From an uncultured Spirochaetales bacterium (GTDB taxonomy: Bacteria; Spirochaetota; Spirochaetia; Sphaerochaetales; Sphaerochaetaceae): 47,185 nucleotides of DNA. Numbering within the stretch: the stretch's first letter is position 1; each line of letters opens with the position of its first letter. Positions 16,616-31,499 of this stretch are shown here, piece by piece. Location of the stretch: assembly GCA_945947045.1 (NCBI GenBank), contig CAMEXG010000001.1, positions 1 through 47,185 on the forward strand, given 5' to 3'. Under the pieces are notes generated by a model. It saw only the letters and a program-made list of their open reading frames with translations, made no database searches and had not been told where the DNA came from. Made by a program: the position numbers and the translations under genes.

Positions 16616-16635
16616 CAAAATATTTTCCAAACAGG

Positions 16636-16662
16636 AAAAAGCACGGGGATACAAGATCCCCG
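16636..16662 (-). terminator. rho-independent terminator ending the ABC/sulfatase operon
   Basis: Stem CGGGGAT / ATCCCCG with a 5-nt loop, followed on the minus strand by UGCUUUUUCC. Starts 5 nt after the sulfatase stop. Confidence 0.8.
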
Positions 16663-16666
16663 ATAA

Positions 16667-18130
16667 TCACCAATTAATCTTCTTAGGTTGCTTCTTACTT
16701 GACACCATCTCTTCCGGATAGTGACGAGCACAGTCAGGAGCATGCCATCGTTCATCAGAATCAAAAGAACAACGCATTGTAATAGAGAGGTTTTGTTCCT
16801 CTTTCTTTGCATTTTCAACTATTTTTTCAAAGCTTTCACACTTTTCATCCAATAAAGATACCGCTTCTTTTGCAAACTCAGAATAAGAAGAAATTATATT
16901 TTCCGTTTCATGAGGATCTTTCTCTATATCGAAAACCTCTTCTTTATCTGAAGTGCAATATCTGACATATTTAAGGCTACCCTTCTTTACCATCTGGGCA
17001 TATGGAACACTATGTGTATTTCTATCCATAGCACCACCAAGTTCAGAGATCACCATTCTCTTTTTATCATCATACTCCTCTGTAAGTTGCTTTTTAAGGC
17101 TGACTCCATCTGAGCCATATGCAATGGGTGCGTCTACTAGATCACAGAGAGTAGGTCCTAGATCGATAAGGCTTGTAGCTCCTTCGATCTTTACGTTCTT
17201 TCTTATTCCGTCACCGGCAATTATAAGAGGCGTATGTACGGACTCTTCGAAAAATGTCTGCTTACCATACAGACCTCTTGATCCTATTTGATCTCCATGA
17301 TCTGAAGCATAAATAAAGATTCCTTCATGTCCTGTACGTCTCAAATACTCTTGGAAAGCGTCATATACCATACCGACTTCCATGTCTGTGAACTCACACA
17401 TAGCGTAGTATGCCGCTCTGACAGCTTTCACTACTTCAGGGTCTTTATCATTGAAGACACCTTCATAGAATGATGGAAGAGGATAATCCACATCGTCTTC
17501 TCCGCTGACTCTTTCGTAATAATAGTCGTAAAGTTCCTTTGGAGCTACATAAGGATGATGGGGTGCATATGTTCCGACACATAGAAACTGTGGTTTTTCA
17601 TAGCTATCCTTCAGATAATCCAAAGCATGCTCTACAACATATCTATCGAACTCAAGAGTAGGAGAATTGCCTGCCCCAATTATTGAAATACAGTGAGCCC
17701 CGCCTGTAGGAGTATTGAGATGAACTCCCCTCTCTTTTTTAAAGGCTTCGGTCGGTCTGTTTGTATATATCGGAGTTATATCTCCTGCAATACGCTTTGA
17801 AAAACCATGTCTCTGGTCAGGGCCTACAAAGTGCATTCTTCCACACAGCACCGTCTCATAGCCGATGCTGTTCAGGCTATGGGCGAAAGTAGCACGTGAA
17901 GAATCAAGAACACTGAAGTTTCCCATTACTCCGCACTTAGAGGCTAACTGTCCTGACATCAGACTCATTCTGGCAGGGACGCAAAGCGGATAAGGAGTGT
18001 AGTTATTCATAAATGCTACACCCTCCGAAGCGATTCTATCTAAGTTTGGAGTTCTCAAGATTCCATTTCCAACATAGTGTTGCTGGAGAAAGGCATGTTG
18101 GTCAGAAAAAAACAAACAAATATCTTTCAT
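16667..18130 (-). CDS. Cys-type (formylglycine) sulfatase, no signal peptide
   Basis: 487 aa. Sulfatase signature PLCVPARMSLMSG (C-x-P-x-R). The N-terminus MKDICLFFSDQH has no hydrophobic leader. Confidence 0.85.
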   Translation of the reverse strand: MKDICLFFSDQHAFLQQHYVGNGILRTPNLDRIASEGVAFMNNYTPYPLCVPARMSLMSGQLASKCGVMGNFSVLDSSRATFAHSLNSIGYETVLCGRMHFVGPDQRHGFSKRIAGDITPIYTNRPTEAFKKERGVHLNTPTGGAHCISIIGAGNSPTLEFDRYVVEHALDYLKDSYEKPQFLCVGTYAPHHPYVAPKELYDYYYERVSGEDDVDYPLPSFYEGVFNDKDPEVVKAVRAAYYAMCEFTDMEVGMVYDAFQEYLRRTGHEGIFIYASDHGDQIGSRGLYGKQTFFEESVHTPLIIAGDGIRKNVKIEGATSLIDLGPTLCDLVDAPIAYGSDGVSLKKQLTEEYDDKKRMVISELGGAMDRNTHSVPYAQMVKKGSLKYVRYCTSDKEEVFDIEKDPHETENIISSYSEFAKEAVSLLDEKCESFEKIVENAKKEEQNLSITMRCSFDSDERWHAPDCARHYPEEMVSSKKQPKKINW

Positions 18131-18134
18131 TTCT

Positions 18135-19088
18135 TTAACCCAACTCCTCGACTCTACAACATCTGACGAAATGTCCAGGACTTACTTCTTGCTGCTCCTG
18201 TGGCTCAAGACATTTTTCTGTAGCAAACTTACATCTAGCGGCAAATCTACATCCAGGCTTAGGATTAATTGGAGAAGTAAGCTCTCCCCTCAATATCTCC
18301 CTCTTATTCGGATGATCGATATCAATACTTGGAATTGCAGACAACAATGCTTTTGTATATGGATGAAGTGGCATTTTGAATAGTTCCTTTGAAGGGCATT
18401 TCTCCACAACCTGACCAAGATACATTACACAGATTTCATCAGAAATATGTTTTACAACGGACATATCATGAGTTACGAACATATATGTAAGATCTCTATC
18501 CATCTGCAGTTTTTTCAAGAGGTTTAAAACCTGTGCCTGAATAGAAACGTCGAGAGCGGAGACAGGCTCGTCACAAACAACGAACTTTGGATCCAATGCA
18601 AGAGCTCTTGCTATTCCGACTCTCTGTCTCCTTCCACCGTCCAGTTCGTGAGGATATGCATACTTTAGTCTCTCATCAATTCCAACAAGGTCCATGAGCA
18701 TATCTGTTTTTTCTTCGATTTCAGACTTAGAGTATCTTCCCGATACTTTGAGAGGTTCTTTTACAGTATCCCTGATGGATTTCTTCGGGTCGATTGATGA
18801 GTATGGATCCTGGAATATAATCTGCATCTGCTCTCTGACTCTCTTTAGATCCTTGCCCTTCACATCAGATACATCTTCGCCTTCAAGAAAGATCTTTCCG
18901 TCAGTTTTATCTAAAAGATGAATGATTGTTCTTCCAAGAGTAGATTTACCACATCCAGATTCTCCGACTATTCCAACAGTATGGCCCTTTTCAATATCCA
19001 TGGTAACATCATCCACAGCGTGGAGAAGTCCTCTTGCAGTTGAGAAGTATTTTTTAAGTCCCTCGACTCTCACCATTGATTCGGACAT
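18135..19088 (-). CDS. ABC transporter ATP-binding protein, OppF/DppF type
   Basis: Walker A GESGCGKST, signature LDGGRRQRV, and a C-terminal oligopeptide-type extension with Cys residues. Confidence 0.9.
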   Translation of the reverse strand: MSESMVRVEGLKKYFSTARGLLHAVDDVTMDIEKGHTVGIVGESGCGKSTLGRTIIHLLDKTDGKIFLEGEDVSDVKGKDLKRVREQMQIIFQDPYSSIDPKKSIRDTVKEPLKVSGRYSKSEIEEKTDMLMDLVGIDERLKYAYPHELDGGRRQRVGIARALALDPKFVVCDEPVSALDVSIQAQVLNLLKKLQMDRDLTYMFVTHDMSVVKHISDEICVMYLGQVVEKCPSKELFKMPLHPYTKALLSAIPSIDIDHPNKREILRGELTSPINPKPGCRFAARCKFATEKCLEPQEQQEVSPGHFVRCCRVEELG

Positions 19089-20090
19089 TTATTTTCCCTC
19101 CTTTGAAAGAACAGACTTCATATTAATACAATGTGAAATATGACCGTCTTCTGTTGTCAACGCGGGAATTTCACCCTTCAAGCAGGCCTCTGTCGCATAT
19201 TTGCATCTTGGAGCAAAGGCACATCCCACAATCTCTTTTGTCGGATCTGGTGGGAGACCTTCAATCGGATGAAGCCAGATATCATCATCCGCCATGTCTG
19301 GAATTGCACCAAAGAGACCTAAAGTATATGGATGAGAAGGATGATGGAATATCTGTTCTTTTGTTCCATATTCTACGATTCTTCCAGCATAGATAATTGC
19401 AACCTCGTCACATACAGTTGCAACGACACCAAGGTCATGGGTGATCAAAAGCATTGCAGTATTAAACTTCTTCTGCAACTCCCCTACAAGCTCCAATACC
19501 TGAGCCTGGATTGTAACATCCAAAGCTGTTGTCGGCTCATCAGCCAAAAGCACCTGAGGATTACAAGCAAGAGCTATGGCTATAACGATTCTCTGTTTCA
19601 TTCCACCGGAGAACTGATGAGGGTATTCATAATAACGGTCTTCTGTGATTCCCACCATTTTAAGCATTTCTTTAGCTCTCTCTTCACACTGCTCTTTTGA
19701 CAAATCACTATGAAGTTTTACTGCTTCAGATATCTGCTCACCTACTCTCTGTACTGGGTTAAGTGCAGTCATAGGATCCTGAAAAATCATAGATATTTCA
19801 TTACCTCTAATCTTTCTCATATCATGCTCTTTAAGAGAAAGAAGATCTTTTCCATCAAGTTTTATTTCTCCCTCCACTATTCTTGCACCTACATCAGGCA
19901 AGATTCTAAGAATAGACTTAGCTATTGTAGTCTTTCCTGCTCCTGTTTCACCAACCAATCCCAGTGTCTTACCTTTATACATCTTTAGGTCTACGCCGTT
20001 TACGGCATGAACCACTGTCTTACCGGAGAAGTATTCGACTTTTAGATTCTTCACCGAAAGAAACTCTTTGTTTTCAGCTGTGTTATCCAT
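19089..20090 (-). CDS. ABC transporter ATP-binding protein, OppD/DppD type
   Basis: Walker A GETGAGKTT, FSGGMKQRI, Walker B LLADEPTTALD. The start abuts the next gene's stop. Confidence 0.9.
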   Translation of the reverse strand: MDNTAENKEFLSVKNLKVEYFSGKTVVHAVNGVDLKMYKGKTLGLVGETGAGKTTIAKSILRILPDVGARIVEGEIKLDGKDLLSLKEHDMRKIRGNEISMIFQDPMTALNPVQRVGEQISEAVKLHSDLSKEQCEERAKEMLKMVGITEDRYYEYPHQFSGGMKQRIVIAIALACNPQVLLADEPTTALDVTIQAQVLELVGELQKKFNTAMLLITHDLGVVATVCDEVAIIYAGRIVEYGTKEQIFHHPSHPYTLGLFGAIPDMADDDIWLHPIEGLPPDPTKEIVGCAFAPRCKYATEACLKGEIPALTTEDGHISHCINMKSVLSKEGK

Positions 20091-20102
20091 TATATCTTCT
20101 CC

Positions 20103-20960
20103 TTATTTCTTAAGTTTTGGATCGAGAGCATCTCTAATTCCATCGCCAAGCATATTGACAGCAAGAACTGTCACGGCAATTGCAAGACCTGGGAAAATAA
20201 CCATATGAGGGCTCTTTCTGATAAAAGCTCTTGCTCCACTGAGCATTGCACCCCAGTCTGGTGTAGGAGGCTGCACGCCAAGTCCGATGAAGGATAGGGA
20301 AGCTGCCTGAATGATAGTATGGGCGACACCCATTGTCATACCGACAATATTTGCACTTATGGAGTTTGGAACCAAATGGGTGAAGATTATCCTTGCAGGA
20401 GAACAGTTAATTGAATATGCAGCTTCAATATATTCAGCCTTTCTCTGCTTAAGCATGTTTGCCCTCAACATTCTTGCCTGACCAGGTATTGCTCCTACAC
20501 TTAATGCGAGAATGGTATTGAAATATCCAGAACCAAGAACGGCAGACATTACGATTGTGAGAAGCATACCAGGAAGAGATTGGATGACATCCAAAGCTCT
20601 CATGATGATGTTATCTGTCCAACCACCTGCAAAACCTGCAACAGCGCCGATGACTATACCGATGACAGAACTGATTGCCGTAGCGATTATTCCCATGGAA
20701 AGAGAATATCTTGTGCCTACCACAACACGAGAGAATATATCCCTACCGATTTCATCTGTTCCAAACCAATGTTTTGCGGAAGGAACCTGTCTAAGAGCAG
20801 TTGGATCTATTTCCTGATATCCATAGGGAGCAATCTGTGTGGCGAAGATTGCAATCAACACCTCAATAAGAAGAATAACCAATCCAATCATTGCCATCTT
20901 GTTTTTACTAAGCTGATAAACAAATCTTGAAAATTCAGACTGACCTTTATGTTTCTTCAT
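20103..20960 (-). CDS. ABC transporter permease, OppC/DppC type
   Basis: 285 aa, 6 TM segments, EAA-like loop (EYIEAAYSINCSPARIIF). Confidence 0.9.
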   Translation of the reverse strand: MKKHKGQSEFSRFVYQLSKNKMAMIGLVILLIEVLIAIFATQIAPYGYQEIDPTALRQVPSAKHWFGTDEIGRDIFSRVVVGTRYSLSMGIIATAISSVIGIVIGAVAGFAGGWTDNIIMRALDVIQSLPGMLLTIVMSAVLGSGYFNTILALSVGAIPGQARMLRANMLKQRKAEYIEAAYSINCSPARIIFTHLVPNSISANIVGMTMGVAHTIIQAASLSFIGLGVQPPTPDWGAMLSGARAFIRKSPHMVIFPGLAIAVTVLAVNMLGDGIRDALDPKLKK

Positions 20961-21931
20961 TAGTTAGCCCCCTTCTTGACTGCAACTTTTTTCTTGCCCT
21001 TATTCTGATACTGAGCCTTTATTCTTGGGTCTACAGCCGCATAAAGCATATCTACGAGAAGCATGCTGAACGAGAAGACGATAGCCAAGAAGATTGTTCC
21101 TGTCTGAACAACAGGATAGTCTCTGTTGTTAACAGCTGTGATGATAAGTGTACCCATGCCAGGGATAGAGAAGATTGTCTCGATGATCATCGCACCGCCA
21201 AGCATCTTTCCAAACTGTGTTCCCATCATTGTAATAATAGGAATCAAAGCATTCTTAAGAGCATGCTTGATAATTACTTTATTCTCTGGTACACCCTTCG
21301 CTCTGGCTGTTGTAATATAATCAGATCTGATGACATCTAGCATACTGGATCTGGACTGACGAGCTGCAGATGCAATATGGGTAGCGGAAGCTGAAATTGC
21401 AGGAAGAATGTAGTATTGTATACCACCGATACCAAGGGCAGGAAGCCATTTGAGTTTTACAGCAAAAAGAATAACCAACAACAAAGCAAGCCAGAAGTTT
21501 GGCATTGATACTCCGACGAGAGCCAAAACCATACACAAAGAGTCCTGCCATCTATTTTGATGTACTGCAGCAATGACGCCAAGAGGCACACCGATTGCAA
21601 AAGAAAGAATCAATGTTATACCTGAAAGCATCATAGTTCTTGGAAGTCTTTCAACAATAGAGTCTGCAATAGGAATTCCGGTTCTCCATGCCACTCCAAG
21701 ATTAAAATGAATAAATGTATCGCTTAAAAATCTTGCCAATCTGACAAAATATGGATCATTTAGGCCCAATTCTTCTCGTTTTGCTTCCAAAGCCTCTTCC
21801 GTCGCTTCTGAACCCAAAATAATCTCAGCAGGATCACCAGGACAATATGTCATTAAAGTAAAAACAACAATGGCGACAGCTAGAATAATCGGAATCATCC
21901 AAAGTAAACGCTTTAGAAAATATCTAAGCAT
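20960..21931 (-). CDS. ABC transporter permease, OppB/DppB type
   Basis: MLRYFLKRLL N-terminus typical of OppB. I place the start at Met11 of the track ORF because AGGAGG lies 7 nt upstream. Confidence 0.9.
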   Translation of the reverse strand: MLRYFLKRLLWMIPIILAVAIVVFTLMTYCPGDPAEIILGSEATEEALEAKREELGLNDPYFVRLARFLSDTFIHFNLGVAWRTGIPIADSIVERLPRTMMLSGITLILSFAIGVPLGVIAAVHQNRWQDSLCMVLALVGVSMPNFWLALLLVILFAVKLKWLPALGIGGIQYYILPAISASATHIASAARQSRSSMLDVIRSDYITTARAKGVPENKVIIKHALKNALIPIITMMGTQFGKMLGGAMIIETIFSIPGMGTLIITAVNNRDYPVVQTGTIFLAIVFSFSMLLVDMLYAAVDPRIKAQYQNKGKKKVAVKKGAN

Positions 21932-21998
21932 TAGTACTCCTCCTTTTTTGTTTCCTTGCATAGATTGCCCTGCATATAGCAGGACAATCTAGTTTTTA

Positions 21999-23582
21999 TC
22001 AGTTGTATATGCAGGCTGTAGGAACTACCATGTTAATGTTGTCATTTACAACTTCCTTGATTCCAACCTTATTGTTCCATACTGCAAGGTTATTAAGCTG
22101 GTACATTCCATATCCGTAAGCTTCTTCCTTGATGTAGTTATGAACCTTGTTAATATTTTCAGGTGTGAATCCCTTCACTGTTGAAGCCTCTGCAATCATG
22201 TCTGCAAGTACATAGTCATGTCTACTTGTAGCGTCACCAGTCTTGTAGGATCTGCAGTCATATCTTGTATTCCAGTGGTTTGCAAGTGTGATGCCACCGA
22301 CCTGGTTAATGAACATATCGTACTGTGTTCCATCAAGTCTAATAGCTGTAACAAGGGCAACTTGTCTCAAATCAAGCTTGATGTTGATGCCAACGGCAGC
22401 ACAGCAGTTCTGAATGATTTCTGCAACAGTCTTTGTTGTTGAGGAACCAAGAAGAACGAGTTCTTCTCCCTTGTAGTTAGACTTAGCGAGACATTCCTTA
22501 GCCTTTTCTACGTTATAAGGATAGTATTCCTCGTCGAGCCACTCTTTTTGGTAACCCATAGCATAAGTAGCTGCAGAGTCATGCATTACTGTTCCATATC
22601 CTTCGAGGGCGGCGTCAATCATCAACTGGTTATTGATGGCATAACAGATTGCCTGTCTAAGATATTTGTCTTCTGCAACAGGTTTTCCTTCTGCCCCTGA
22701 GAAGAAGATCTGCATACCGTTTCTTGCATCTGCTCTCTGGAGTGTATAATCACTGTCACCATCAAACTGTACTGCAGTTGAAGCTGGGAAGTTGAGGACA
22801 AAATCTACTACACCTGTCTCAAGTGCGATGCCAAGCTGGGCAGCTTCTGGAATAATATGGACTTTAACATTGTCCACAGTCGCCCTCAGCTGCTCAGGAA
22901 GGAGATTATAATCCTGCCAGTAGTCATCTCTCTTTGTATATTCCATAGAAGAGCCGGAAACAAAACCTGTTACCTTGTAAACGCTAGTTGTTACACAGCT
23001 GTTCACATAATCATCACCAGCCTTCTCATATTCAGCCTTTGAACAGACAAGAGTATCTGTCATGAATGTTTCGAATACACCTACAAGAGTATTGTTGAAC
23101 TTAACTCTTACAGAATAGTCGCCTGTAGCTTCGATGGATTCAACATACTTGTAGTTTGGCTTAAGAGCTTTTTCTTTTGATGTCTCGACAACCCAAACAA
23201 TATCTTCGGATGTAATCTTGTTACCTTTGCTATCTGTAATGTAGTCCCAGATAGTAATATCGTATGTTACACCGTTATCTTCTGTCTTCCATTCCTTTGC
23301 AATCCATGGAACAAGGGTATTTGAACCATCAAGATAGCCGAGAGACTCATAAGTAATAGTAGAAATTACAGGAAGATTGTTTCCGATGTTGGATCTGAAT
23401 GGAGAGAGTGTATCCCAACCAGTGTTGATACCAACATTGATTTCAATCTTTTTCTTCTCTGCAGTCTTTGTGCTTGTTTCAGTAGCAGTTCCTGATGTAG
23501 AACTGGTCTTCGATTCGCTCTTTCCACATGAAACAAAAAGCATGAGAACAGCCAAAAGAAGCACGAAAATAATCTTTTTCAT
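21999..23582 (-). CDS. family 5 (peptide/nickel/oligosaccharide) ABC substrate-binding lipoprotein
   Basis: Lipobox LMLFVSC-G followed by a Ser/Thr-rich linker. 527 aa, SBP_bac_5-like. AGGAG RBS. Confidence 0.85.
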   Translation of the reverse strand: MKKIIFVLLLAVLMLFVSCGKSESKTSSTSGTATETSTKTAEKKKIEINVGINTGWDTLSPFRSNIGNNLPVISTITYESLGYLDGSNTLVPWIAKEWKTEDNGVTYDITIWDYITDSKGNKITSEDIVWVVETSKEKALKPNYKYVESIEATGDYSVRVKFNNTLVGVFETFMTDTLVCSKAEYEKAGDDYVNSCVTTSVYKVTGFVSGSSMEYTKRDDYWQDYNLLPEQLRATVDNVKVHIIPEAAQLGIALETGVVDFVLNFPASTAVQFDGDSDYTLQRADARNGMQIFFSGAEGKPVAEDKYLRQAICYAINNQLMIDAALEGYGTVMHDSAATYAMGYQKEWLDEEYYPYNVEKAKECLAKSNYKGEELVLLGSSTTKTVAEIIQNCCAAVGINIKLDLRQVALVTAIRLDGTQYDMFINQVGGITLANHWNTRYDCRSYKTGDATSRHDYVLADMIAEASTVKGFTPENINKVHNYIKEEAYGYGMYQLNNLAVWNNKVGIKEVVNDNINMVVPTACIYN

Positions 23583-23623
23583 AGTATCTCCTTTTTTTCT
23601 CAGGATTTTTTTGATCCCGAGAT

Positions 23624-23642
23624 TAATTAAACAATTTAATTA
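23624..23642. promoter_or_regulatory. 19-bp dyad TAATTAAA-CAA-TTTAATTA, a candidate operator
   Basis: Perfect 8-bp inverted arms with a 3-bp spacer. Starts 8 nt downstream of the predicted -10. 16/19 identical to 31500-31518. Confidence 0.45.
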
Positions 23643-23649
23643 TGTCTAA

Positions 23650-23677
23650 ATAATAACAGAGGTTTTCAATAACGCAA
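23650..23677 (-). promoter_or_regulatory. sigma70-like promoter of the SBP/ABC/sulfatase operon
   Basis: Minus strand: TTGCGT (23677-23672), 16 nt, TGt-TATTAT (hexamer 23655-23650). Same hexamers as the promoter at 16587-16615. Confidence 0.5.
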
Positions 23678-23752
23678 GGATTTTTTTATATTTTTTATAA
23701 AAATTATTTTTAAAAATAGATTCTTTATCTGCAATTAATTATATTTTTTGCA

Positions 23753-25381
23753 TTAATTCTGTTTTTCCCTTGCTCTTCTTACCATTTGGCCAAGCATCAT
23801 GCCACCCAATCCCTCTTCGTATCGTCTGAAGATTTCTTTTTTTACATCTTCATCCAAACCTCTTGTCATAGCCTCCACCTGGGCTCTTTTTATCCTATTG
23901 TCGACTTTCCTAGGTACAATATCACAAGTGGACTGATACCAATCCAACATATCAAGTTTCATCTTCATGATTTGGTCTTTGTAGAGAGGATTATCTATTT
24001 CATTCTTCTCCTCTTTTATATCTTTCTCCAAATCATAGAATTCATCTTTATTGTTAGCCCTCTTTATATACTTATACCTATGGTCTCTGATCATTGTACC
24101 CTTTATATGGGCTTCACCGTTGGTCTGGGAAATCTGCTTGGGCCAATAATCACTTTCTTCAGGAATACTTCCGCCTTTTCCACAGACCCCATGGTACTCG
24201 TCAGCCTGCCATTCATACTCCATTCTTCCACCTTCAGAGAAGACATATTTCCTATTCTCGATCTTCCTATCTTCAACAATAGGTCTGAGAGATATTCCGA
24301 ATTGATCATGATCAGGCTCTACGCCGACATAATCCATGACTGTCCTATAGAAATCCACTAGTTCTACTAGGCTATCGGAGATACCTGGATCCACTTTCTC
24401 ACCCTTTGGAGGTTTGATGAGCAAAGGCACTCTTACAAGACAGTCTTCGAATGTATTTTGGGATTTCTCAGGAAGAGAATAATCTCCACAGAAATCTCCA
24501 TGGTCAGATAGAACGACTATGAGAGTGTCATCATAGACACCTTTTTCCTTAAGACCGTCGCATAGTCTCTTAAACTGTGCATCGATTTTCATGCACATTC
24601 CAAGATACACAGCCCTCAGCTCGTCCCAGTCCTTTTCCTCCATCTGGTCGATTCCCATATGGGATCTCAGTTCTTCCTGCATTAAAGGCTTACCTTCACC
24701 CTTTGATGCCCTCTTTGGCAGTTTTTTTCTATCTATGGCTGAGAAATATGGCTTCTCAACTCCATAAGGGCAGTGAGGATAGAAAAGGCCAAGGAAAGCG
24801 ACCACAGGTTTTCCTCCATGGTCCTCCCCCATCATCTCTATGCATCTATCTACGTCGCTGTCATCGGAAGTATAATTAATACCTTCATTATTGACTGTCA
24901 GCTCTCCCAGATAGTGGGAATAGAAGAATTTATCGCCTTTTTTACCTCTTATATTTGATATAACAGGTTTATTATGATCAGTAGCCATTACTCTAGGATC
25001 TGTCTTCCCTGAGTGGATTTCATCAGCTTGTGATTCATACAACCCTGGAATCTGCCCCGCAACAAGATCGTTACGGTCATTCATCCAAACATAGTATCCT
25101 GCATTCTTTAATTCAGTGAACAGATTCGACTCATCCTCATGAAGAAGATGCTGCATAGTTCTATGTCCTTTGACATGAGGATACAAACCAGTAAAAAAAG
25201 AACAGCGAGATGGAACGCATACAGGGTTCTGGCAGTATGCATTTGAAAATGACACAGCCTCTTTCGATGCAAACTCATCAAGATTAGGAGTGATTGCAGC
25301 TGGATTTGCTCCCATATGATAAAGCGCATCCCACCTCATCTCATCTGGGTTAAATATTACAACATTCGGTCTTTTTTCCAT
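23753..25381 (-). CDS. Cys-type sulfatase, no signal peptide
   Basis: Signature PVCVPSRCSFFTG. I place the start at Met9 of the track ORF (MEKRPNVVIF) because GGAG is 5 nt upstream of it and it begins 2 nt after the GH3 stop. Confidence 0.85.
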   Translation of the reverse strand: MEKRPNVVIFNPDEMRWDALYHMGANPAAITPNLDEFASKEAVSFSNAYCQNPVCVPSRCSFFTGLYPHVKGHRTMQHLLHEDESNLFTELKNAGYYVWMNDRNDLVAGQIPGLYESQADEIHSGKTDPRVMATDHNKPVISNIRGKKGDKFFYSHYLGELTVNNEGINYTSDDSDVDRCIEMMGEDHGGKPVVAFLGLFYPHCPYGVEKPYFSAIDRKKLPKRASKGEGKPLMQEELRSHMGIDQMEEKDWDELRAVYLGMCMKIDAQFKRLCDGLKEKGVYDDTLIVVLSDHGDFCGDYSLPEKSQNTFEDCLVRVPLLIKPPKGEKVDPGISDSLVELVDFYRTVMDYVGVEPDHDQFGISLRPIVEDRKIENRKYVFSEGGRMEYEWQADEYHGVCGKGGSIPEESDYWPKQISQTNGEAHIKGTMIRDHRYKYIKRANNKDEFYDLEKDIKEEKNEIDNPLYKDQIMKMKLDMLDWYQSTCDIVPRKVDNRIKRAQVEAMTRGLDEDVKKEIFRRYEEGLGGMMLGQMVRRAREKQN

Positions 25382-25383
25382 TT

Positions 25384-27801
25384 TTACTCCACGCTTACAG
25401 GACATGTATATACACGGTTATCTTTTACACACTTCTTTTCACCGATTATCTTTACCTCTCCAACTACACTATATGTTCCGGAAGACTGACCTACCATGAT
25501 ATTAAGAGTTCCAGGTTCAACTGCAAACTCCATGTTTTCATTATAGTAACCAAGCTGTCTCATTGAGAGATGGAAGGTTACTTTTTTAGTTTCACCCTTC
25601 TCCAATGTTATTCGCTTAAAGCCCTTAAGTTCCTGAACCGGTCTTGTAACGCACACGTTCTTTACTCTTGTATAAAGCTGTACAACTTCGTCTCCTTTAA
25701 CATTTCCTGTATTCTTCACTTCTACAGTAATGTCTACATCTCCATCAGCTTCAACTTCTTTTCTACTTAAAACCAAGTTGGATATGTCGAAAGTAGTGTA
25801 TGAGAGACCATATCCGAATGGATAAAGAGGCGAATCATCCGAGTCTACATAACCTCCCTTTAAAAGTCCTACAATTGGTTCTCTTACATAACCTGAACCC
25901 GAACGATGATTATAGAAAATAGGAATCTGTCCCTCATTTCTAGGAATTGAGAATGTCATCTTTCCTCCAGGGTTTACACTTCCATCCAATACATCTGCCA
26001 CTACTTTTCCTGCATATTGCCCCGGCATATATGCTTCAATAATTGCAGACGCATGCTCAGAAGCATAAGGAGTAGAGAATATCTGAGGTCCATACATTAT
26101 TACTACTACAGGCTTATTTGTAGCAATAAGGCTTTCAAGTAGTTCTTCCTGAACACCTGGAAGCGTTATTTTTGTCCTATCTATTCCCTCTCCTCCTGTT
26201 ACATTTACCCAACCGCAGTTTCCTCCGCAGGCAAATACGACAACATCATTTTCTTCCGCAGTTTTTATGGCAGAAGCGAAATGAGACTTGTCATCTCCCG
26301 TGATTTCGCAACCCTTTTCATAGGAGACGGAGAATCTTTCTGATAGGACTTCTTTCAAGCTTCTGGCATCAAGTCCTCTAAGGACACCGTCCATGTCACC
26401 AAGTTTTTTCAGTTCCTCTTCTGTATAGATGGCCATCATCTTGGCAAAAGGATTGTTGTCATTCTTCTTGTTATTGTCGGCAAGATCAGCCATACCTCCA
26501 ATGCCGACGTTCTCACCTCTGCTACCTGCCTCCATCATTTCAATATATGCAGGATATGTATATCCAGACACCGGATATCTAATGGAATCTGCATGAGGAC
26601 CAATGAGGGCTACCTTGACACCTTTCTTAAGAGGAAGAACTCCATCGTTTTTCAACAAAACGAGAGAATCTGCTGCGATTTTTTCTGAGAGATCATCTTT
26701 TTCCTTTGTTCTGAAGGTATCTTTTATACTACTTTCATCACAATAAGGGTTCTCAAATAGGCCGCACTTAAATTTTACATACAATACTCTTCTTACTGAT
26801 TCATTTATGCACTCTTCTGTGATAAATCCACTCTTAACATACTCTGGGAGTTGTCTGAAAGCTGCACCAACAGGAATCTCAGTATCAGTTCCTGCTTTTT
26901 TTGCAATTGCTCCGGCTTCTTTGTAACTAGATCCGATTTTATATACATTATATGTTCTGAGGACAGCAGCTCCATCGGAAGTGACGACTCCTTTAAAGCC
27001 CATCTCTTCTCTCAATAGCTTTCCTATGATTTCAGGGTTGTCAATTACTGGAAGGCCATCAATCTCACCATAGTTACACATTACAGCATCCAGATCTTCT
27101 TCCTTCATGGCTGTTTCAAAGGGAAGAGCGAAATCTTCATATAACTCTCTATGACCGCAACGGAAAATAGAAGTATTTAGACCACCTTGGGTGAATGCGT
27201 AACCTAAAAAGTGCTTGGCAATACAGCTGACTTTTTTACTCTGCATTCCTCCGATATATTCTTTTCCAAATTGGGATACTAAATATGGATCCTCTCCATA
27301 TGTTTCATATGTTCTACCCCATCTAGGATCTCTTGCCACATCGATTACAGGGCTCATAGCAGATGAGATTCCTACACTTCTTGATTCTTCGCCAATATAT
27401 TCAGCCATTTCTCTAGCTAATTCCGGTTCCCAAGTAGAACCTAGATTTATCTGGGAGGGATAAAGGGAGCCACCTTTTCCCGGATAACCACAGAGGTTTT
27501 CACTTTGTAAAGCAACAGGGATGCCTAGTCTTGTCTCTTCTACAAAATATCGCTGGACTTCATTTGCTATTTTTGCAATGTAATGTGGATCTGTAATTCC
27601 TGCTGTAGAGAACTGAGTGAATCTTCCGTGTCCGTTAGGAAACTGTTTCTTAAGTTCTTCTTTACTTACTTCACCATTGACTATGACGGTTGGAACAAGG
27701 TCTCCACAAAGCTGGGCCACCTTCTCCTCCAGTGTCATTTTTGAGAGCAAATCCTCTACTCTTTCCTTAATAGGCAAAGATGCATCCTTGTATTTGTCCA
27801 T
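25384..27801 (-). CDS. glycoside hydrolase family 3 (BglX-type beta-glucosidase/xylosidase-like), cytoplasmic
   Basis: 805 aa. LTLEEKVAQL start, KHFLGY motif, GFKGVVTSDG nucleophile region, C-terminal FnIII-like domain. No signal peptide. Confidence 0.88.
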   Translation of the reverse strand: MDKYKDASLPIKERVEDLLSKMTLEEKVAQLCGDLVPTVIVNGEVSKEELKKQFPNGHGRFTQFSTAGITDPHYIAKIANEVQRYFVEETRLGIPVALQSENLCGYPGKGGSLYPSQINLGSTWEPELAREMAEYIGEESRSVGISSAMSPVIDVARDPRWGRTYETYGEDPYLVSQFGKEYIGGMQSKKVSCIAKHFLGYAFTQGGLNTSIFRCGHRELYEDFALPFETAMKEEDLDAVMCNYGEIDGLPVIDNPEIIGKLLREEMGFKGVVTSDGAAVLRTYNVYKIGSSYKEAGAIAKKAGTDTEIPVGAAFRQLPEYVKSGFITEECINESVRRVLYVKFKCGLFENPYCDESSIKDTFRTKEKDDLSEKIAADSLVLLKNDGVLPLKKGVKVALIGPHADSIRYPVSGYTYPAYIEMMEAGSRGENVGIGGMADLADNNKKNDNNPFAKMMAIYTEEELKKLGDMDGVLRGLDARSLKEVLSERFSVSYEKGCEITGDDKSHFASAIKTAEENDVVVFACGGNCGWVNVTGGEGIDRTKITLPGVQEELLESLIATNKPVVVIMYGPQIFSTPYASEHASAIIEAYMPGQYAGKVVADVLDGSVNPGGKMTFSIPRNEGQIPIFYNHRSGSGYVREPIVGLLKGGYVDSDDSPLYPFGYGLSYTTFDISNLVLSRKEVEADGDVDITVEVKNTGNVKGDEVVQLYTRVKNVCVTRPVQELKGFKRITLEKGETKKVTFHLSMRQLGYYNENMEFAVEPGTLNIMVGQSSGTYSVVGEVKIIGEKKCVKDNRVYTCPVSVE

Positions 27802-27843
27802 ACATATCTCCTTTTTACTATCCTCTGTTTTTTTTCTGTTTGT

Positions 27844-29109
27844 TTATTTTCCTAAAAGCTTAAACATGTCCTTCTTATAGTCTTCAACACCATTCTGATC
27901 AAAAGGATTTACTCCTGTGATATTGCATGAAACATAGCAGGCCATCTGGAAGAAATAGAAAAGAGCGCCATAAGTCTCTTCATCGAAACGAGGAATCTCC
28001 AAAACAAGGCATGGGAATCTTCTTGAGTGAGCGGCAAGAGTTGCGTTAAATGCAGCTTTATTGATTTCCCAAAAATCTTTTCCATCAAGATATTTGAAGC
28101 CATCTTCCAATTCATCACTTGGAAGCGGACAAGTAGATTCTCTTTCCGTTACATTCAAAAACGTCTCGAAAAGCATTGGGGAACCATCCTGGACAAACTG
28201 TCCTAAAGAATGCAGATCCTCACTATATGAAGTATCCATCGGCAATAAGCCCTTATCTTCCTTTCCTTCACTTTCACCGAAAAGCTGTTTCCACCACTTT
28301 GCAAATCTAAAGAATCTGGGTTCGAAATAAGAAAGAAGTTCTACACTCTTCCCTTTTTCTTTTAGCATAGTGCGCATTGTGGCATATTCGAGGGCGACAT
28401 TTAATATTGAATGATCGCTTTTGAGTCTACTCTCCATATCTTTTGCACCCTTAACCATAGCTTTAATATCAAAACCTGCAACAGCAAGAGGGAAAAGACA
28501 GATGGGAGAGAGCGCCGTATATCTACCGCCAATATTCGAAGGGAAAGGAAGAAGTGTATAACCCTCCTTTTCAGCCATATTCCAGGAAGGCGTATTCTCT
28601 GTAAAAGTAACGATTACTCTTGAAGAGTAACTATCCCCATATCTTTTATCCAAGAAGTTCCTGATAACTCTGAAAGCAATACCAGGCTCCAATGTCTCAA
28701 AGTTTTTGGCGATACAATCCACATAGACGCTTTTCTTGTTCTCCAAAGATTTTAATACTTCGTTCATTGAATATGGGCTTATAGTATTTCCTGCCCATAT
28801 TATTTCAACATCATTCTTCCGTCCCAATGCCTCGTATACAGCTCTGGCTGCCTGGTTTGAACCGCCAATACCTATGACAACCAAGGCATCTGCATCTTTC
28901 CTTACTCTTAAGGCAGTCTCTTCATACTTTTCCAGCCATTCTTCTCCAGCCCAAAGAGATACATTGTGCCAACCGAGAGTATCTTTATACTTCTCCTCTC
29001 CTTTCAGAGCTCTATCTAGGGAAGGAAGGTTTCTTTCTAGTCTTGCTTTATATTCCTCTTTCCCGATTAATCCCGAATTATCTACATACTTAAAGTTTAT
29101 ATCCGTCAT
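27844..29109 (-). CDS. glucose-6-phosphate isomerase family protein (short Firmicute-type PGI), with an atypical phosphate loop
   Basis: GIGGS, IGGRYTALSP, WWKQLFGESEGK, DLHSLGQ and NPFDQNGVEDYKK signatures are present. The canonical SKSGTT/SKTFTT loop reads AKNFET. Confidence 0.8.
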   Translation of the reverse strand: MTDINFKYVDNSGLIGKEEYKARLERNLPSLDRALKGEEKYKDTLGWHNVSLWAGEEWLEKYEETALRVRKDADALVVIGIGGSNQAARAVYEALGRKNDVEIIWAGNTISPYSMNEVLKSLENKKSVYVDCIAKNFETLEPGIAFRVIRNFLDKRYGDSYSSRVIVTFTENTPSWNMAEKEGYTLLPFPSNIGGRYTALSPICLFPLAVAGFDIKAMVKGAKDMESRLKSDHSILNVALEYATMRTMLKEKGKSVELLSYFEPRFFRFAKWWKQLFGESEGKEDKGLLPMDTSYSEDLHSLGQFVQDGSPMLFETFLNVTERESTCPLPSDELEDGFKYLDGKDFWEINKAAFNATLAAHSRRFPCLVLEIPRFDEETYGALFYFFQMACYVSCNITGVNPFDQNGVEDYKKDMFKLLGK

Positions 29110-29993
29110 AGAGACGCTCCTTTTACTTGATAGTTTTCTTTGATTATTTCTATAACCTTAGCAACATACTTCTCATTTTCCGGAACATTGGAGTTTAAGA
29201 ATGCATGCCAAAGATCTTTATCGATAAAATAAGAATGTAGAATTCCATCCCTATTTAGTATTTCATCCAGCTTATCGCTATGATTTTTCAATATCTCTTT
29301 TTCTGATGCAAATAGCGCTACAAATGGAAACCCAAAATAGTCGCCCAGCACAGGATATGCATATGGATCATCACAATCCGCTGTGATGTAATACTCATAT
29401 TTCTCACCCGTTCTATAGTCCAGAATAGCATCATTATCTATTTGGTATTGCGTGGGCTCTATCCCTTCTCCAATATATGGAGAGGAAAGAATAAGGGAGG
29501 ACGGAAGATAAATACCATGGTCCCTGCACCATAGAGACAACGACAAAGCTATGGTTCCACCTGCGCTCGTTCCAATGATACTCGACTCTCCCGGATCGAC
29601 TCCCCATTCCAATAGTTTTCTCCAGACTTTTACACAATCCATAAAGGCTGCAGGATATGTATCCTCAGGTGCAAGTGAATAGTTGATTCCATAAATAGTC
29701 ATTCCTAGATTTCTTGCTATCTGAGTGCAAAGCCAATATCCATTCGAAGCATATCCGTTTTTAAAACCTCCACCATGAATATAAACAAGGGCGGAAGACG
29801 ATCTTGAATTGGGAAAAGTAATTTTTTCTGTTTCAACACCTTTTATATTAAGTAGAGTCTTCTCAGCATCTTCCGGAAGCTTAGAGGCTCTTTTTTTCTG
29901 ATTCTCCCTCATCTCTTCCAGAGTAGACTTACTCCTCAATTTCTTTATTTCCCTAAGTCTCTCTTCATATTTCTGTCCTATTTCTCCAAGCAT
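29106..29993 (-). CDS. alpha/beta-hydrolase esterase (HSL/deacetylase-like)
   Basis: Oxyanion motif HGGGF, nucleophile elbow GTSAGG, distal DLWHAF. 4-nt overlap with the PGI-like start. Confidence 0.75.
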   Translation of the reverse strand: MLGEIGQKYEERLREIKKLRSKSTLEEMRENQKKRASKLPEDAEKTLLNIKGVETEKITFPNSRSSSALVYIHGGGFKNGYASNGYWLCTQIARNLGMTIYGINYSLAPEDTYPAAFMDCVKVWRKLLEWGVDPGESSIIGTSAGGTIALSLSLWCRDHGIYLPSSLILSSPYIGEGIEPTQYQIDNDAILDYRTGEKYEYYITADCDDPYAYPVLGDYFGFPFVALFASEKEILKNHSDKLDEILNRDGILHSYFIDKDLWHAFLNSNVPENEKYVAKVIEIIKENYQVKGASL

Positions 29994-30003
29994 AAGACCA
30001 ACC

Positions 30004-31476
30004 TCAGACGCCTCTTTTGTTTCTACCGCTCTTCCATGGGTTTCTCACGTTTCTGTAGTTCATGGACTCATTACCCACTGTCTTCATCTTTTCAATAAAT
30101 GCAGCTTTGGCTTCTTCGATACGTTTGTCATAAGCCTCGGTATGATATTTCTCCAGGAGAGGATCCTTATATTTTTCCATATAAGAGTTTAGAATGCTTC
30201 TCATCTTCGCTATCTCTTCCTGATACTCAGGATCATCAATAAGATTACACAAAGCATCCGGATCCTTCTCAAAATCATAGAATTCTTCAGGGACTCTATA
30301 CTGGAAGAAGTCCACTCTTTCTTTTATTTCTTTATTCTCTTCCCCCGCCTTCACCATGGCATTAAAGGTAAGACCAGTCTGAGCCTCATTCTTAAAAACT
30401 TTCTCTCCATCGGACCATGCATTGAAGATATATCCATATCTCTTGTTTTGTACGCATCTCATAGGGTAAGAATTAAAAGCAGAAGTAAGGTTAAACTGTG
30501 TATATACATAACCATCTCTACTATCATCTTTCTTTCCTTCAAGAATACTAAGGTAACTCTTTCCGTCACACTTCATCTTATCTTCCAATCCACAAGCTTG
30601 GAGAACTGTAGGAGTAAAATCTACTCCACTTATTAGATCTGTATTATTTCTTGTTCCTGCAGCGATATGTCCAGGCCACTTGGCGATAAAAGGAGTCTTT
30701 GTAGAGTTCAAGTAACAGTTTGCCTTGGCAAATGGGAATGCCATACCATTATCAGACATGAAAATAACCAGTGTTTCGTCTTCGAGACCTGCTTCTTTCA
30801 ATGAATCCAATACTGCGCCCATAGACTGGTCTCCCCTATGGACTGAAGAATAATACTGTGCAAGTTCTTTTCTTACGTCTGGTAAATCAGGAAGGAATCC
30901 AGGCACCCATGCTTCTTCACTCTTATAGAATCTATCGGCATAGATATGGTAGCCATAGAATTTTTTAACTTCATCGTCGCTTCCTGCGAAAGGTCTATGT
31001 GGATCATGGGTATTAGCCATCAAGAAAAAAGGCTTTCCTGATTCTTTTGCCATTTCGAAGAACTCTTTGGACCTGGACCTATATAAATCAGGGCTTCTAC
31101 CGTAATTTGATTCAGGCTCCATCATTCTTGAGGCATAATCCCACGCAAATTTTTCCATTGGTACGGCATGCTTCAGTTTTCCGATAATTCCATTGAAGTA
31201 TCCATTTTCCTTAAGGGTCTCCGTGAGAGTAGGAATCTCGGAAGAAATGGGCATAAAACCAGGGGCACCGTTTTTATGAGGATATAATCCTGTCAGGAGA
31301 CACTCCCTCGAAGGCTGGCATACAGCGATAGTAACGTGGGCATTGTCAAAACATACACCTTCAGATGCAAGCTTGTCCAAGTTTGGTGTTATGTCATCTA
31401 CAGGGCATCCGAAACAACCGATAGAGTTGTAATTCAAATCATCCGCCATTAATAGAAGGATATTGGGTCTTGTCAT
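30004..31476 (-). CDS. Cys-type sulfatase, no signal peptide
   Basis: NILLLMADDL metal-site N-terminus, signature AVCQPSRECLLTG. AGGAG RBS at 31483-31487. Confidence 0.9.
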   Translation of the reverse strand: MTRPNILLLMADDLNYNSIGCFGCPVDDITPNLDKLASEGVCFDNAHVTIAVCQPSRECLLTGLYPHKNGAPGFMPISSEIPTLTETLKENGYFNGIIGKLKHAVPMEKFAWDYASRMMEPESNYGRSPDLYRSRSKEFFEMAKESGKPFFLMANTHDPHRPFAGSDDEVKKFYGYHIYADRFYKSEEAWVPGFLPDLPDVRKELAQYYSSVHRGDQSMGAVLDSLKEAGLEDETLVIFMSDNGMAFPFAKANCYLNSTKTPFIAKWPGHIAAGTRNNTDLISGVDFTPTVLQACGLEDKMKCDGKSYLSILEGKKDDSRDGYVYTQFNLTSAFNSYPMRCVQNKRYGYIFNAWSDGEKVFKNEAQTGLTFNAMVKAGEENKEIKERVDFFQYRVPEEFYDFEKDPDALCNLIDDPEYQEEIAKMRSILNSYMEKYKDPLLEKYHTEAYDKRIEEAKAAFIEKMKTVGNESMNYRNVRNPWKSGRNKRGV

Positions 31477-31499
31477 TTATGTCTCCTTTTACTAATCAT

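Follow-up and report, generated by a model that had tools for sequence, protein, structure and literature searches.

What becomes of a sulfated glycoside that a gut bacterium takes up whole and trims inside the cell? The question is raised by a 47,185-nucleotide stretch of DNA from an uncultured Spirochaetales bacterium (Sphaerochaetaceae; assembly GCA_945947045.1, contig CAMEXG010000001.1, positions 1 to 47,185 of the forward strand), which is called the window throughout. Its minus strand carries, at 16667–31476, an operon for three sulfatases, a glycoside hydrolase of family 3 (GH3), an esterase, an isomerase, and an ATP-binding cassette (ABC) importer. The host is a pig- or ruminant-gut member of the Sphaerochaetaceae and a diderm spirochaete; the window DNA is found mainly in pig-gut and to some extent in bovine metagenomes, and the Lnt gene at 44144–45817 fits a diderm. 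Among the GTDB representative genomes, no exact 48-mer match to the window turned up. An earlier note on this DNA treated the operon as a self-contained locus, which is not borne out, as the operon is inserted in a larger conserved island of about 33 kb (9041–41842), where it sits between regulators and catabolic genes. We tentatively favor the reading that the operon is an inducible cytoplasmic front end for a sulfated β-glycoside, and that it feeds a pathway for 6-sulfo hexoses, e.g., N-acetylglucosamine (GlcNAc)-6-sulfate, that resembles the sulfo-Embden–Meyerhof–Parnas (sulfo-EMP) route.

The operon consists of eleven tightly spaced open reading frames (ORFs, gaps of −22 to 170 nt) that run from 31476 to 16667. 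All eleven are intact, with their catalytic motifs kept and with starts that resemble ribosome-binding-site (RBS)-preceded ones.

30004–31476, minus strand: Sulf1, a Cys-type S1 sulfatase (PF00884, 1.5e-45; SGSH_C)
29106–29993, minus strand: HSL-family (Abhydrolase_3) esterase (Pfam; HGGG at 73, GTSAG at 141)
27844–29109, minus strand: aldose-ketose isomerase resembling phosphoglucose isomerase (PGI-like; PF00342, 66 bits only)
25384–27801, minus strand: GH3 exo-β-glycosidase with three domains (PF00933, PF01915, and the Fn3-like PF14310)
23753–25405, minus strand: Sulf2, a Cys-type S1 sulfatase (PF00884, 1e-34)
18135–23582, minus strand: Opp/Dpp-type ABC importer with all its parts (Pfam SBP_bac_5 on the binding protein)
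21999–23582, minus strand: lipoprotein binding protein of this importer (SBP_bac_5; lipobox LFVSC)
20960–21961 and 20103–20960, minus strand: the two permeases of this importer
19089–20090 and 18135–19088, minus strand: the two ATPases of this importer
16667–18130, minus strand: Sulf3, a Cys-type S1 sulfatase (PF00884, 7e-35)

Sulf1, Sulf2, and Sulf3 are S1 formylglycine (FGly)-dependent sulfatases, which is illustrated by the PF00884 domain, the Cys-type C-x-P-x-R motif, and the metal and catalytic residues that are present in all three. The maturation motif is C53-Q-P-S-R in Sulf1 (CQPSRECLLTG), C63-V-P-S-R in Sulf2 (CVPSRCSFFTG), and C50-V-P-A-R in Sulf3 (CVPARMSLMSG), and it is joined by SDNG at 241, SDHG at 300, and SD[HN]G at 276, respectively, as well as by an N-terminal DD, DE, or DQ that was assigned by inspection. 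These motifs imply a maturation that depends on an anaerobic sulfatase-maturating enzyme (anSME). The closest structures of Sulf1 are human SGSH (4MHX, 146 bits) and S1_8A (9BB9), which makes it SGSH/S1_8-like; its relatives outside the spirochaetes belong to Planctomycetota and Verrucomicrobiota. Sulf2 has its best structural match, a weak one (125 bits), in the exo-2S-iota-carrageenan sulfatase 6PT4, and its homologs in Clostridia are 54–62% identical. Sulf3 is closest to choline sulfatases (6FNY, 6G5Z) and scores 249 bits against TIGR03417, under the cut-off of 433. The GH3 enzyme carries the nucleophile motif TSD (GVVTSD at residue 274), is under the cut-off for all NCBIfam equivalogs, and is closest to the β-xylosidases 7ZB3 and 8C7F (612 bits), followed by β-glucosidases. 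The PGI-like protein scores 396 against PRK14097 of NCBIfam (cut-off 443), the importer is 60–96% identical across related loci, and the esterase is a variable accessory gene that is missing or divergent in some of them. From these clues, all of them weak, it can be said only that the predicted substrate is a small, multiply sulfated β-glycoside, perhaps an acylated one.

The sulfatases, the GH3 enzyme, and the esterase lie at the positions given in the earlier note, on the minus strand, and its statement that they have no leader peptides is confirmed by a heuristic test that combines in-frame upstream stops with the best 12-residue Kyte–Doolittle mean. The starts examined were those of the longest ORFs. 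In-frame stops lie 1 codon upstream of Sulf1, 5 of Sulf2, 18 of Sulf3, 15 of the GH3 gene, 18 of the esterase gene, and 17 of the PGI-like gene, and no start codon falls between these stops and the annotated starts, so that no signal peptide can be added by an alternative upstream start. The N-terminal hydrophobicity of these six proteins is at most 1.2, compared to 3.4–3.6 for the two binding proteins of the island. Sulfatases, GH3 enzyme, and esterase are leaderless and therefore cytoplasmic. Uptake through the ABC importer, as had been proposed, is supported as well; its lipoprotein binding protein starts with MKKIIFVLLLAVLMLFVSC, which holds the lipobox. The model of desulfation followed by ordinary sugar metabolism leaves several features unexplained, namely the PGI-like gene of the operon, the absence of a hexokinase, the divergent glycolytic paralogs, a second importer that is SsuA-like, and the anion exporter TauE. 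The interpretation was only partly right because its borders were drawn too narrowly: the PGI-like gene (27844–29109) was omitted although it lies within the interval, as were the flanking genes of the same system.

These flanking genes make up the core of the island.

41027–41842, minus strand: divergent NagB-like glucosamine-6-X deaminase/isomerase, 271 aa (no Pfam match)
39903–41027, minus strand: NagA-type GlcNAc-6-X deacetylase (Pfam Amidohydro_1)
38413–39906, minus strand: PHP/DUF3604-like metallohydrolase (weak DUF3604 and CehA/McbA matches)
35724–38324, minus strand: NitT/TauT-type (SsuA-type) ABC importer with all its parts (Pfam NMT1, BPD_transp_1, ABC_tran)
37533–38324 and 36766–37557, minus strand: permease and ATPase, respectively, of the SsuA-type importer
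35724–36725, minus strand: SsuA-like binding protein with signal peptide
34127–35602 and 33450–34130, minus strand: two-component system of a multi-pass histidine kinase and a LuxR-type response regulator, respectively (Pfam)
32123–33349, minus strand: NagC/Mlc-like ROK regulator with a winged helix–turn–helix domain and a degenerate ATP motif (Pfam ROK and HTH_24; NCBIfam NagC, 144 bits)
31625–32119, minus strand: 164-aa membrane protein (no Pfam match)
15353–16510, minus strand: paralog of class-II ketose-bisphosphate aldolase (fructose-bisphosphate aldolase, FBA; PF01116)
14196–15353, minus strand: 1-kinase of the pyrophosphate (PPi)-type phosphofructokinase (PFK) family (PF00365)
13350–14186, minus strand: isomerase resembling triose-phosphate isomerase (TPI-like; PF00121)
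11860–13353, minus strand: LarA-like nickel-pincer enzyme of the single-catalytic-histidine subfamily (Pfam Lar_N)
11041–11796, plus strand: aldose 1-epimerase (mutarotase; Pfam)
9911–11032, plus strand: ROK regulator-like protein without the DxGxT kinase motif (Pfam)
9041–9826, plus strand: TauE/SafE anion exporter, in one convergent unit with the two preceding entries (Pfam)

No hexokinase, other 6-kinase, or phosphotransferase system (PTS) was found in the island by Pfam, NCBIfam, and a check of the ROK motifs. Both ROK proteins are regulator-like and lack a kinase-type ATP motif, so that the island holds all steps of upper glycolysis and amino-sugar entry save the formation of the 6-phosphate. 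Two of the paralogs keep their catalytic residues and are altered at the anion site. The TPI-like isomerase is under the cut-off for all TPI equivalogs and keeps the catalytic Lys, His, and Glu (motifs GHCEER, YEPVWSIGPGKTP, VYGGGL, and DGGLIALTRF), while its phosphate gripper is changed in loop 7 (YGGS to YGGG, i.e., Ser211 to Gly) and loop 8 (GGAS to ALTR); the motifs, and with them the changes, are conserved in about 54–61 of 64 homologs. The NagB-like protein scores 106 bits against NCBIfam nagB (cut-off 237). In alignments with PDB entries, it keeps Asp72, His143, and Glu148, has Asn for Asp141, and has an anion loop that is two residues shorter (CPVGPVGQY); the Asn substitution and the shortened loop are conserved across 44–47 homologs. 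The FBA paralog is likewise under the cut-off for all FBA equivalogs and passes that of the cbbA subfamily only. A loss of the 6-phosphate-binding arginines in the PFK was rejected as a further sign, because the closest solved PPi-PFKs already differ from Escherichia coli PfkA at these positions and the comparison is uninformative. The SsuA-like binding protein has its best NCBIfam matches in the SsuA and taurine binding-protein families and its closest structures in SsuA (3E4R, 2X26) and TauA (6SSY); it also matches Phosphonate-bd weakly. The missing 6-kinase and PTS, the importer that resembles sulfonate binders, and the two altered phosphate sites together lead us to propose an EMP-like pathway for 6-sulfo hexoses. 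NagA and NagB point to an amino sugar, for which GlcNAc-6-sulfate would be the obvious candidate in the gut.

The LarA-like protein belongs, over its full length, to the structurally solved single-catalytic-histidine LarA subfamily (LarA_Bw, LarA_Sp): it matches PDB 9Q3J with 824 bits (about 80% identity, residues 2–485) and 9Q2U/9Q3K with 793 bits. These structures are those of single-catalytic-histidine LarA homologs from Blautia wexlerae and Streptococcus plurextorum, which were described as uncharacterized with a “potential involvement in carbohydrate metabolism” (PMC12611868). In the same work, a phosphorylated aldose was tentatively modeled into unassigned density, and neighboring transporters were described merely as possible sugar ABC transporters (PMC12611868). 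The gene clusters resemble the island in that PGI, PPi-PFK, TPI, FBA, glucosamine-6-phosphate isomerase, and aldose epimerase are also neighbors here. They differ in that sulfonate-type importers, TauE, sulfatases, and anSME are not mentioned for them, with no word starting with “sulfo” in that paper (PMC12611868), and in that the window adds the inserted operon of sulfatases, GH3, and Opp importer. A literature search for a tie between LarA, DUF2088, or the nickel-pincer cofactor and sulfoquinovose, 2,3-dihydroxypropane-1-sulfonate (DHPS), sulfatases, or sulfur metabolism found nothing relevant. The protein is 76–94% identical across 80 genomes, abundant among metagenome protein clusters, and carried by Intestinimonas, Angelakisella, Marvinbryantia, Acutalibacter, Flavonifractor, Lachnospiraceae, Oscillospiraceae, Bullifex, and one metagenome-assembled genome (MAG) of Desulfovibrionaceae. 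The gene itself stands out by its GC content at third codon positions (GC3) of 0.60 (GC 0.49), compared to 0.31–0.47 in every neighboring gene. Together with the protein identity of 76–82% to Clostridia, the high GC3 suggests a recent cross-phylum transfer or strong codon selection.

Is the link between operon and core more than a chance neighborhood? The closest public contigs, those of the MAG “Spirochaetales bacterium SUG1121” (loci L001, L255), have the same gene order at 63–96% amino-acid identity. Close homologs of Sulf3, Sulf2, the GH3 enzyme, the Opp importer, the ROK regulator, and the small membrane protein recur in several lineages, namely ruminal Sphaerochaetaceae (L002, L003, L256–L260), Lacrimispora and a Bacillota MAG (L005–L008), and an Oscillospiraceae MAG (L011). 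In five of the seven informative loci sampled by Sulf3, which come from three lineages, the Sulf3 homolog abuts FBA/TPI/LarA genes with differing gene orders, and the same link is seen in L259, a locus sampled by Sulf1. Sulf3 stands directly upstream of FBA in the window and in L002, L003, L005, and L006. The order is GH3-Sulf2-ROK-Sulf3-FBA-TPI-LarA-ketohexokinase-LarC-TauE-anSME in L005 and PGI-LarA-GH3 in L011. The PGI-like gene is linked to LarA in L011, L083, L119, and L153, and to the Opp importer and sulfatases with no LarA nearby in L007 and L008. The ROK regulator travels with the sulfatase set in Lacrimispora and six Spirochaetales MAGs and is always paired with the 164-aa membrane protein, whose homologs are 31–41% identical in Lacrimispora (L005 3781–4269 and L007 17090–17578 are two of the homologous genes) and 53–80% in Spirochaetales. 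TauE adjoins anSME and sulfatases in L003, L005, and L273, and in related spirochaetes it lies back-to-back with anSME and leaderless sulfatases. Along with the frequency of TauE in the core loci, this counts as a further sign of a sulfo-sugar pathway, as do the paralogs that score under their equivalog cut-offs.

The core is found far more widely than the operon. It is shared by many gut Clostridia and Spirochaetes, in which sulfatases almost never accompany it, and was counted in 33 LarA-sampled loci with flanks of 8 kb or more on either side. A TPI-like gene is present in 29 of them, an NMT1/SsuA-type ABC importer in 25, FBA in 21, NagA or NagB-like in 20 (NagA in 17), a 1-kinase in 17, and TauE in 17. 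Typically, the genes run permease, ATPase, binding protein, kinase, regulator, NagB-like, NagA, FBA, TPI, LarA, PFK, and epimerase, and many Clostridial loci have a two-component system next to the SsuA-like ABC importer and FBA/TPI/LarA. Lacrimispora has a ketohexokinase (PF25270) instead of PFK, which fits a ketose without a 6-phosphate. The sulfatase set usually lies beside the core and the core is rarely accompanied by sulfatases, as is expected of an optional front end that feeds a common trunk; we infer that the two are coupled in this way.

Transcription separates the same two units. Depth was taken as assembler contig depth in three pig-gut metatranscriptome runs, which carries no read counts and is a poor expression measure, and to which related strains may contribute; strains also differ in this region. 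It is mostly 16–55 for FBA-PFK-TPI-LarA (7–18 in one bin), 13–265 for the SsuA-type ABC importer, the highest of the window, and 2–68 for DUF3604, NagA, and NagB-like (17–68 in two runs), compared to about 0–1 for the sulfatase operon (16448–31700) and 0–10 for the housekeeping genes proA/proB. Two features border the operon.

16644–16662, minus strand: terminator-like GC hairpin with a T-run right after the Sulf3 stop, the best-scoring such site in the region
31494–31512: perfect 19-bp palindrome AATCATTAATTAAATGATT, 18 nt upstream of the Sulf1 start, a candidate operator

Contig depth shifts about 10-fold across the hairpin. Both core halves are abundant in vivo, and the sulfatase operon is a separate, mostly silent unit, which is probably inducible. 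The palindrome is the sole perfect copy in the window and does not recur elsewhere in it; it could serve as operator for the neighboring NagC-like ROK regulator, which is probably a repressor that controls the sulfatase operon. A second, perfect AT palindrome of 16 bp (TTATTTAATTAAATAA, 16575–16590) falls within the 156 nt that separate the Sulf3 terminator from the start of the aldolase gene; either a regulator site or chance in AT-rich DNA could account for it. In run X27, one contig of low depth (2.3) joins 19825 to 30013 through 11 unmatched letters, which could be a deletion variant without most of the operon or an assembly chimera.

The proposed pathway would start with the uptake of a small sulfated β-linked glycoside or oligosaccharide, maybe an O-acylated one, by the Opp-type importer. 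In the cytoplasm, it would be trimmed by three regio-distinct Cys-type sulfatases, the GH3 exo-β-glycosidase, and the esterase, and the PGI-like isomerase would turn the released aldose into a ketose. The core substrate would be a hexose that carries a C6 sulfo group in place of the phosphate, most likely GlcNAc-6-sulfate or glucose-6-sulfate and less likely a 6-sulfonate. In the first step of the core, deacetylation and deamination, or isomerization, would yield fructose-6-sulf(on)ate, which would subsequently be phosphorylated at C1 by the PFK-family enzyme or ketohexokinase. Aldol cleavage would then give dihydroxyacetone phosphate (DHAP) and a C3 sulfo-triose. The sulfo-triose would be processed by the TPI-like and LarA-like enzymes in a redox-neutral manner, and the sulfur oxyanion would finally be exported by TauE.

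Several observations weigh against this pathway. NagA passes the cut-off for genuine GlcNAc-6-phosphate deacetylases (TIGR00221 nagA, 305 bits, cut-off 226), and PFK passes that for the PPi-PFK subfamily (NCBIfam PRK14072, 415, cut-off 273; closest structures 3K2Q and 3HNO). The aldolase scores higher against true FBAs (173 bits to the Giardia FBA) than against the solved sulfofructose-phosphate aldolases 8Q57 and 8Q58 (102–105 bits). A Lys208 to Val change in the NagB-like protein, considered as a telling change, was rejected, as it is not conserved across the NagB-like family. For a 6-sulfate to survive, all three co-expressed sulfatases must spare it, and the nearest GH3 structures are β-xylosidases, whose xylose has no C6. 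No LarB, LarC, or LarE gene was found within the window; LarC lies adjacent in L005 and L163. The depth of TauE, ROK, and epimerase is at the baseline (0–5), and that of the core could be inflated by close strains without the sulfatase insert. In L007 and L008, no LarA gene lies within 10 kb of the sulfatase set, and a sulfatase is found in only one of the 33 LarA loci, an unbiased sample, so that the core does not need sulfatases. Finally, Pfam scans of the window ORFs found no radical-SAM/SPASM or formylglycine-generating enzyme (FGE) domain, and tblastn with the anSME of a related locus was empty for the window, which upholds for the window what the earlier note had said of anSME and FGE; the readable flanks (10 kb right, about 4 kb left) held no anSME either. 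Related islands carry a bona fide “anaerobic sulfatase maturase” (anSME) next to TauE, which speaks against sulfatases that cannot be matured; for the species itself, a scan of a genome collection and a protein search with context gave relatives only, none of which could be assigned to it.

A broader claim starts from the core without its front end, namely that many gut Clostridia and Spirochaetes catabolize host 6-O-sulfated hexosamines or hexoses, e.g., mucin GlcNAc-6-sulfate, without a sulfatase, with the sulfate ester standing in for the 6-phosphate. We regard it as rather doubtful. The sugar would be imported by the SsuA-like system, passed through NagA, the NagB-like or PGI-like enzyme, PPi-PFK or ketohexokinase, and the class-II aldolase, and the resulting glyceraldehyde-3-sulfate or dihydroxyacetone-sulfate would be converted by the TPI-like enzyme and the single-histidine LarA without net redox change. 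This conversion might involve an internal hydride shuttle to lactate, with sulfate leaving through TauE. In a literature search, no mention was found of fructose-6-sulfate, glyceraldehyde-3-sulfate, or dihydroxyacetone sulfate, glucose-6-sulfate appeared in marine metabolomics papers only, and a paper on new 6-sulfo-GlcNAcases does not address the downstream fate of the sugar.

Among the rival explanations, the one that survives best, although we consider it unlikely, is that of a self-contained locus that strips an imported sulfated β-glycoside to neutral sugars for ordinary glycolysis. FBA, PFK, TPI, and PGI would then be isozymes that raise flux, and LarA, NagA/NagB, and SsuA would be unrelated. 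Three different sulfatase subfamilies do suffice to strip several positions, the terminator behind Sulf3 and the differences in contig depth show separate transcription units, the sulfatase set occurs without nearby LarA in L007 and L008, and PFK and NagA pass their family cut-offs. However, neither a hexokinase nor a PTS is found anywhere in the island, and the operon is co-localized with LarA/FBA/TPI in three lineages with differing gene orders. Furthermore, the FBA, TPI, PGI, and NagB paralogs are under their equivalog cut-offs, the TPI-like and NagB-like families show conserved changes at anion sites, and TauE and the SsuA-like importer are left unexplained.

A second rival, which appears quite improbable, holds that the core is a new sulfoglycolysis of C-sulfonates (sulfoquinovose (SQ) or its derivatives, and DHPS-type C3 sulfonates), whose product is exported or releases sulfite through TauE; the sulfatase operon would be an independent neighbor that shares only the sulfur-anion exporter and the regulation. 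Sulfo-EMP2 acts on sulfofructose with a PF00365 kinase and a PF01116 aldolase (PMC9594981, PMC10665668), and the kinase and aldolase families of the core match it; this is a direct precedent for the favored pathway, too. As in sulfo-EMP2 and sulfo-EMP, the proposed route is EMP-like with a C6 sulfo group instead of the phosphate and employs an isomerase, a PF00365 1-kinase, and a PF01116 aldolase that yields DHAP and a C3 sulfo fragment. Known SQ clusters also share with the core a mutarotase and a TauE-type exporter, and a hexokinase is used in neither route. For the binding protein, the closest matches are the sulfonate binders SsuA and TauA, and the sulfatases encoded alongside could not attack a C-sulfonate.

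The same LarA subfamily also occurs in other contexts, which swap the sugar steps and keep the SsuA-type importer and TauE. At L163 2422–13961 and L161 7045–17641, it is found in such contexts. One variant combines an NMT1-type ABC importer, a dehydrogenase trio resembling GlpA/GlpB/DUF1667 (glycerol-3-phosphate-dehydrogenase-like), two TauE genes, and LarC, and another has a 676-aa alkaline-phosphatase-superfamily protein and a YihU-family dehydrogenase. This suggests C3 substrates, e.g., DHPS or glycerol sulfate. LarA variants with such dehydrogenase genes and TauE fit DHPS and sulfolactaldehyde and thus speak for the C-sulfonate rival.

On the other side, the window differs from sulfo-EMP2 in that its Pfam scans show no sulfoquinovosidase (GH31) and no SqvD (PF02952) or YihS isomerase, the isomerase being PGI-like or NagB-like instead. 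No sulfolactaldehyde reductase or dehydrogenase is present in the window, where the TPI-like and LarA-like enzymes stand in its place, and the YihU-family dehydrogenase is confined to other LarA contexts. Import is by an SsuA-type system, and the FGly sulfatases that are joined to the core here and in a few relatives point to O-sulfate esters. NagA/NagB imply an amino-sugar entry and occur in 20 of 33 loci, and we know of no 6-sulfonated GlcNAc that is common in the gut. GH3 enzymes are β-specific, whereas natural sulfoquinovosides are α-linked. The aldolase was rejected as an SqiA ortholog on score, with 102–105 bits compared to 173 bits to true FBAs. In addition, the nickel-pincer cofactor is reportedly inhibited by sulfite, which forms an adduct with it (PMC12611868), and this fits poorly with a sulfite-releasing LarA enzyme.

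Still less probable is a third rival, in which the core scavenges sugar phosphates (GlcNAc-6-phosphate, glucosamine-6-phosphate, glucose-6-phosphate) through a PhnD/SsuA-like ABC importer into a dedicated upper glycolysis, with the LarA-like enzyme acting on a phosphorylated sugar. NagA and PFK pass the cut-offs for GlcNAc-6-phosphate deacetylase and the PPi-PFK subfamily, the binding protein has weak Phosphonate-bd matches, a phosphorylated aldose was modeled in PMC12611868, and the absence of a hexokinase fits this rival, too. It gives, however, no reason for a duplicate FBA or a duplicate TPI with a remodeled phosphate gripper, leaves TauE and the recurring link to sulfatases and anSME unexplained, and does not account for the best matches of the binding protein, which are sulfonate binders. 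That the sulfatase operon does not function in this strain, as an acquisition in decay or kept silent, is highly improbable: no anSME is found in the window or the readable flanks, relatives keep anSME next to TauE, which is rearranged here, and the contig depth is near zero, but the eleven ORFs are all intact, tightly spaced, and equipped with catalytic motifs and RBS-like starts, the closest MAG conserves their order at 63–96% identity, anSME genes frequently lie apart from their sulfatases, and a repressed, substrate-induced operon is expected to be silent in bulk gut samples.

How does the front end that we favor compare to known routes for sulfated host sugars? In Bifidobacterium breve UCC2003, an intracellular sulfatase acts on GlcNAc-6-sulfate (Egan et al. 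2016, summarized in PMC7326374). Cytoplasmic desulfation after ABC uptake is thus already known (PMC7326374), and the operon alone is a modest extension of it. In both organisms, the sulfated sugar is imported, the sulfatase is not secreted, desulfation is cytoplasmic and carried out by a Cys-type enzyme that requires anSME, and the lifestyle is one of cross-feeding on sugars freed by other gut bacteria. The B. breve cluster is said to contain one sulfatase with anSME alongside and to act on a monosaccharide, whereas the window has three sulfatases together with GH3, esterase, PGI-like isomerase, and an Opp-type importer suited to oligosaccharides. It also differs in the lack of a linked anSME and in the link to the module of glycolysis paralogs and LarA. 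The polysaccharide utilization loci (PULs) of Bacteroides for mucin and glycosaminoglycans likewise combine several regio-specific S1 sulfatases and exo-glycosidases in one regulated locus. In contrast to these, Pfam scans of the window ORFs reveal no SusC/SusD pair and no TonB-dependent receptor, so that the locus is not a Bacteroides-type PUL; its enzymes have no signal peptides, uptake is by an ABC importer, and trimming would be entirely cytoplasmic.

Some relatives vary the theme. In the Lacrimispora locus L007 (11540–15606), the Opp importer, PGI-like gene, and Sulf3 are followed by two Gfo/Idh/MocA genes and two xylose-isomerase-like TIM-barrel proteins, with no GH3; such pairs occupy the expected place of GH3 in both L007 and L008. 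We take the gene set of L007 to resemble oxidative 3-keto-glycoside cleavage systems, and it may be an alternative way of cleaving the same glycoside. In L273 (9129–12597 and 20842–21143), which belongs to a related spirochaete, TauE is divergent from anSME; behind these come a sulfatase that looks leaderless, a TRAP transporter (DctPQM), a two-component system of the AraC type, and a further sulfatase. The arrangement suggests one more module for desulfation in the cytoplasm, with a TRAP importer.

The right-hand part of the window shows variation of its own. The PHP/DUF3604-like gene between NagA and the SsuA-type ABC genes is lineage-specific and outside the Clostridial core, and the metatranscriptome contigs that cover these ABC genes represent it well, too. 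Just past the island, at 41902–44134, lie genes for a fused XdhC/YqeB-like protein (selenium-dependent molybdenum cofactor maturation) and YqeC, with no molybdoenzyme gene visible in the window. Two loci that cover this flank differ at the strain level within the species: in L170, the gene for the XdhC/YqeB-like protein precedes NagB-like, NagA, and DUF3604, which is the arrangement of the window, and in L169 it precedes a different ABC transporter, a type-I phosphomannose isomerase, and a Gfo/Idh/MocA gene.

In the gut, sulfated host glycans act both as a major nutrient and as a barrier, and the fate of the sulfated mono- and oligosaccharides that primary degraders release has been established for very few organisms. 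The core island is common, pig-gut metatranscriptome assemblies represent it well, and its LarA-like enzyme has been solved without a known reaction. What is new here is that FGly sulfatases (with anSME in relatives) are tied to this island of LarA and glycolysis paralogs. If sulfatase-free catabolism of 6-O-sulfated sugars holds true, the orphan LarA subfamily would gain a function and a sulfate-ester glycolysis would be defined, and the operon of sulfatases, GH3, and Opp importer would be an add-on for more complex sulfated glycosides. The locus thereby offers a testable hypothesis of a new sulfo-sugar glycolysis and a new nickel-pincer chemistry.

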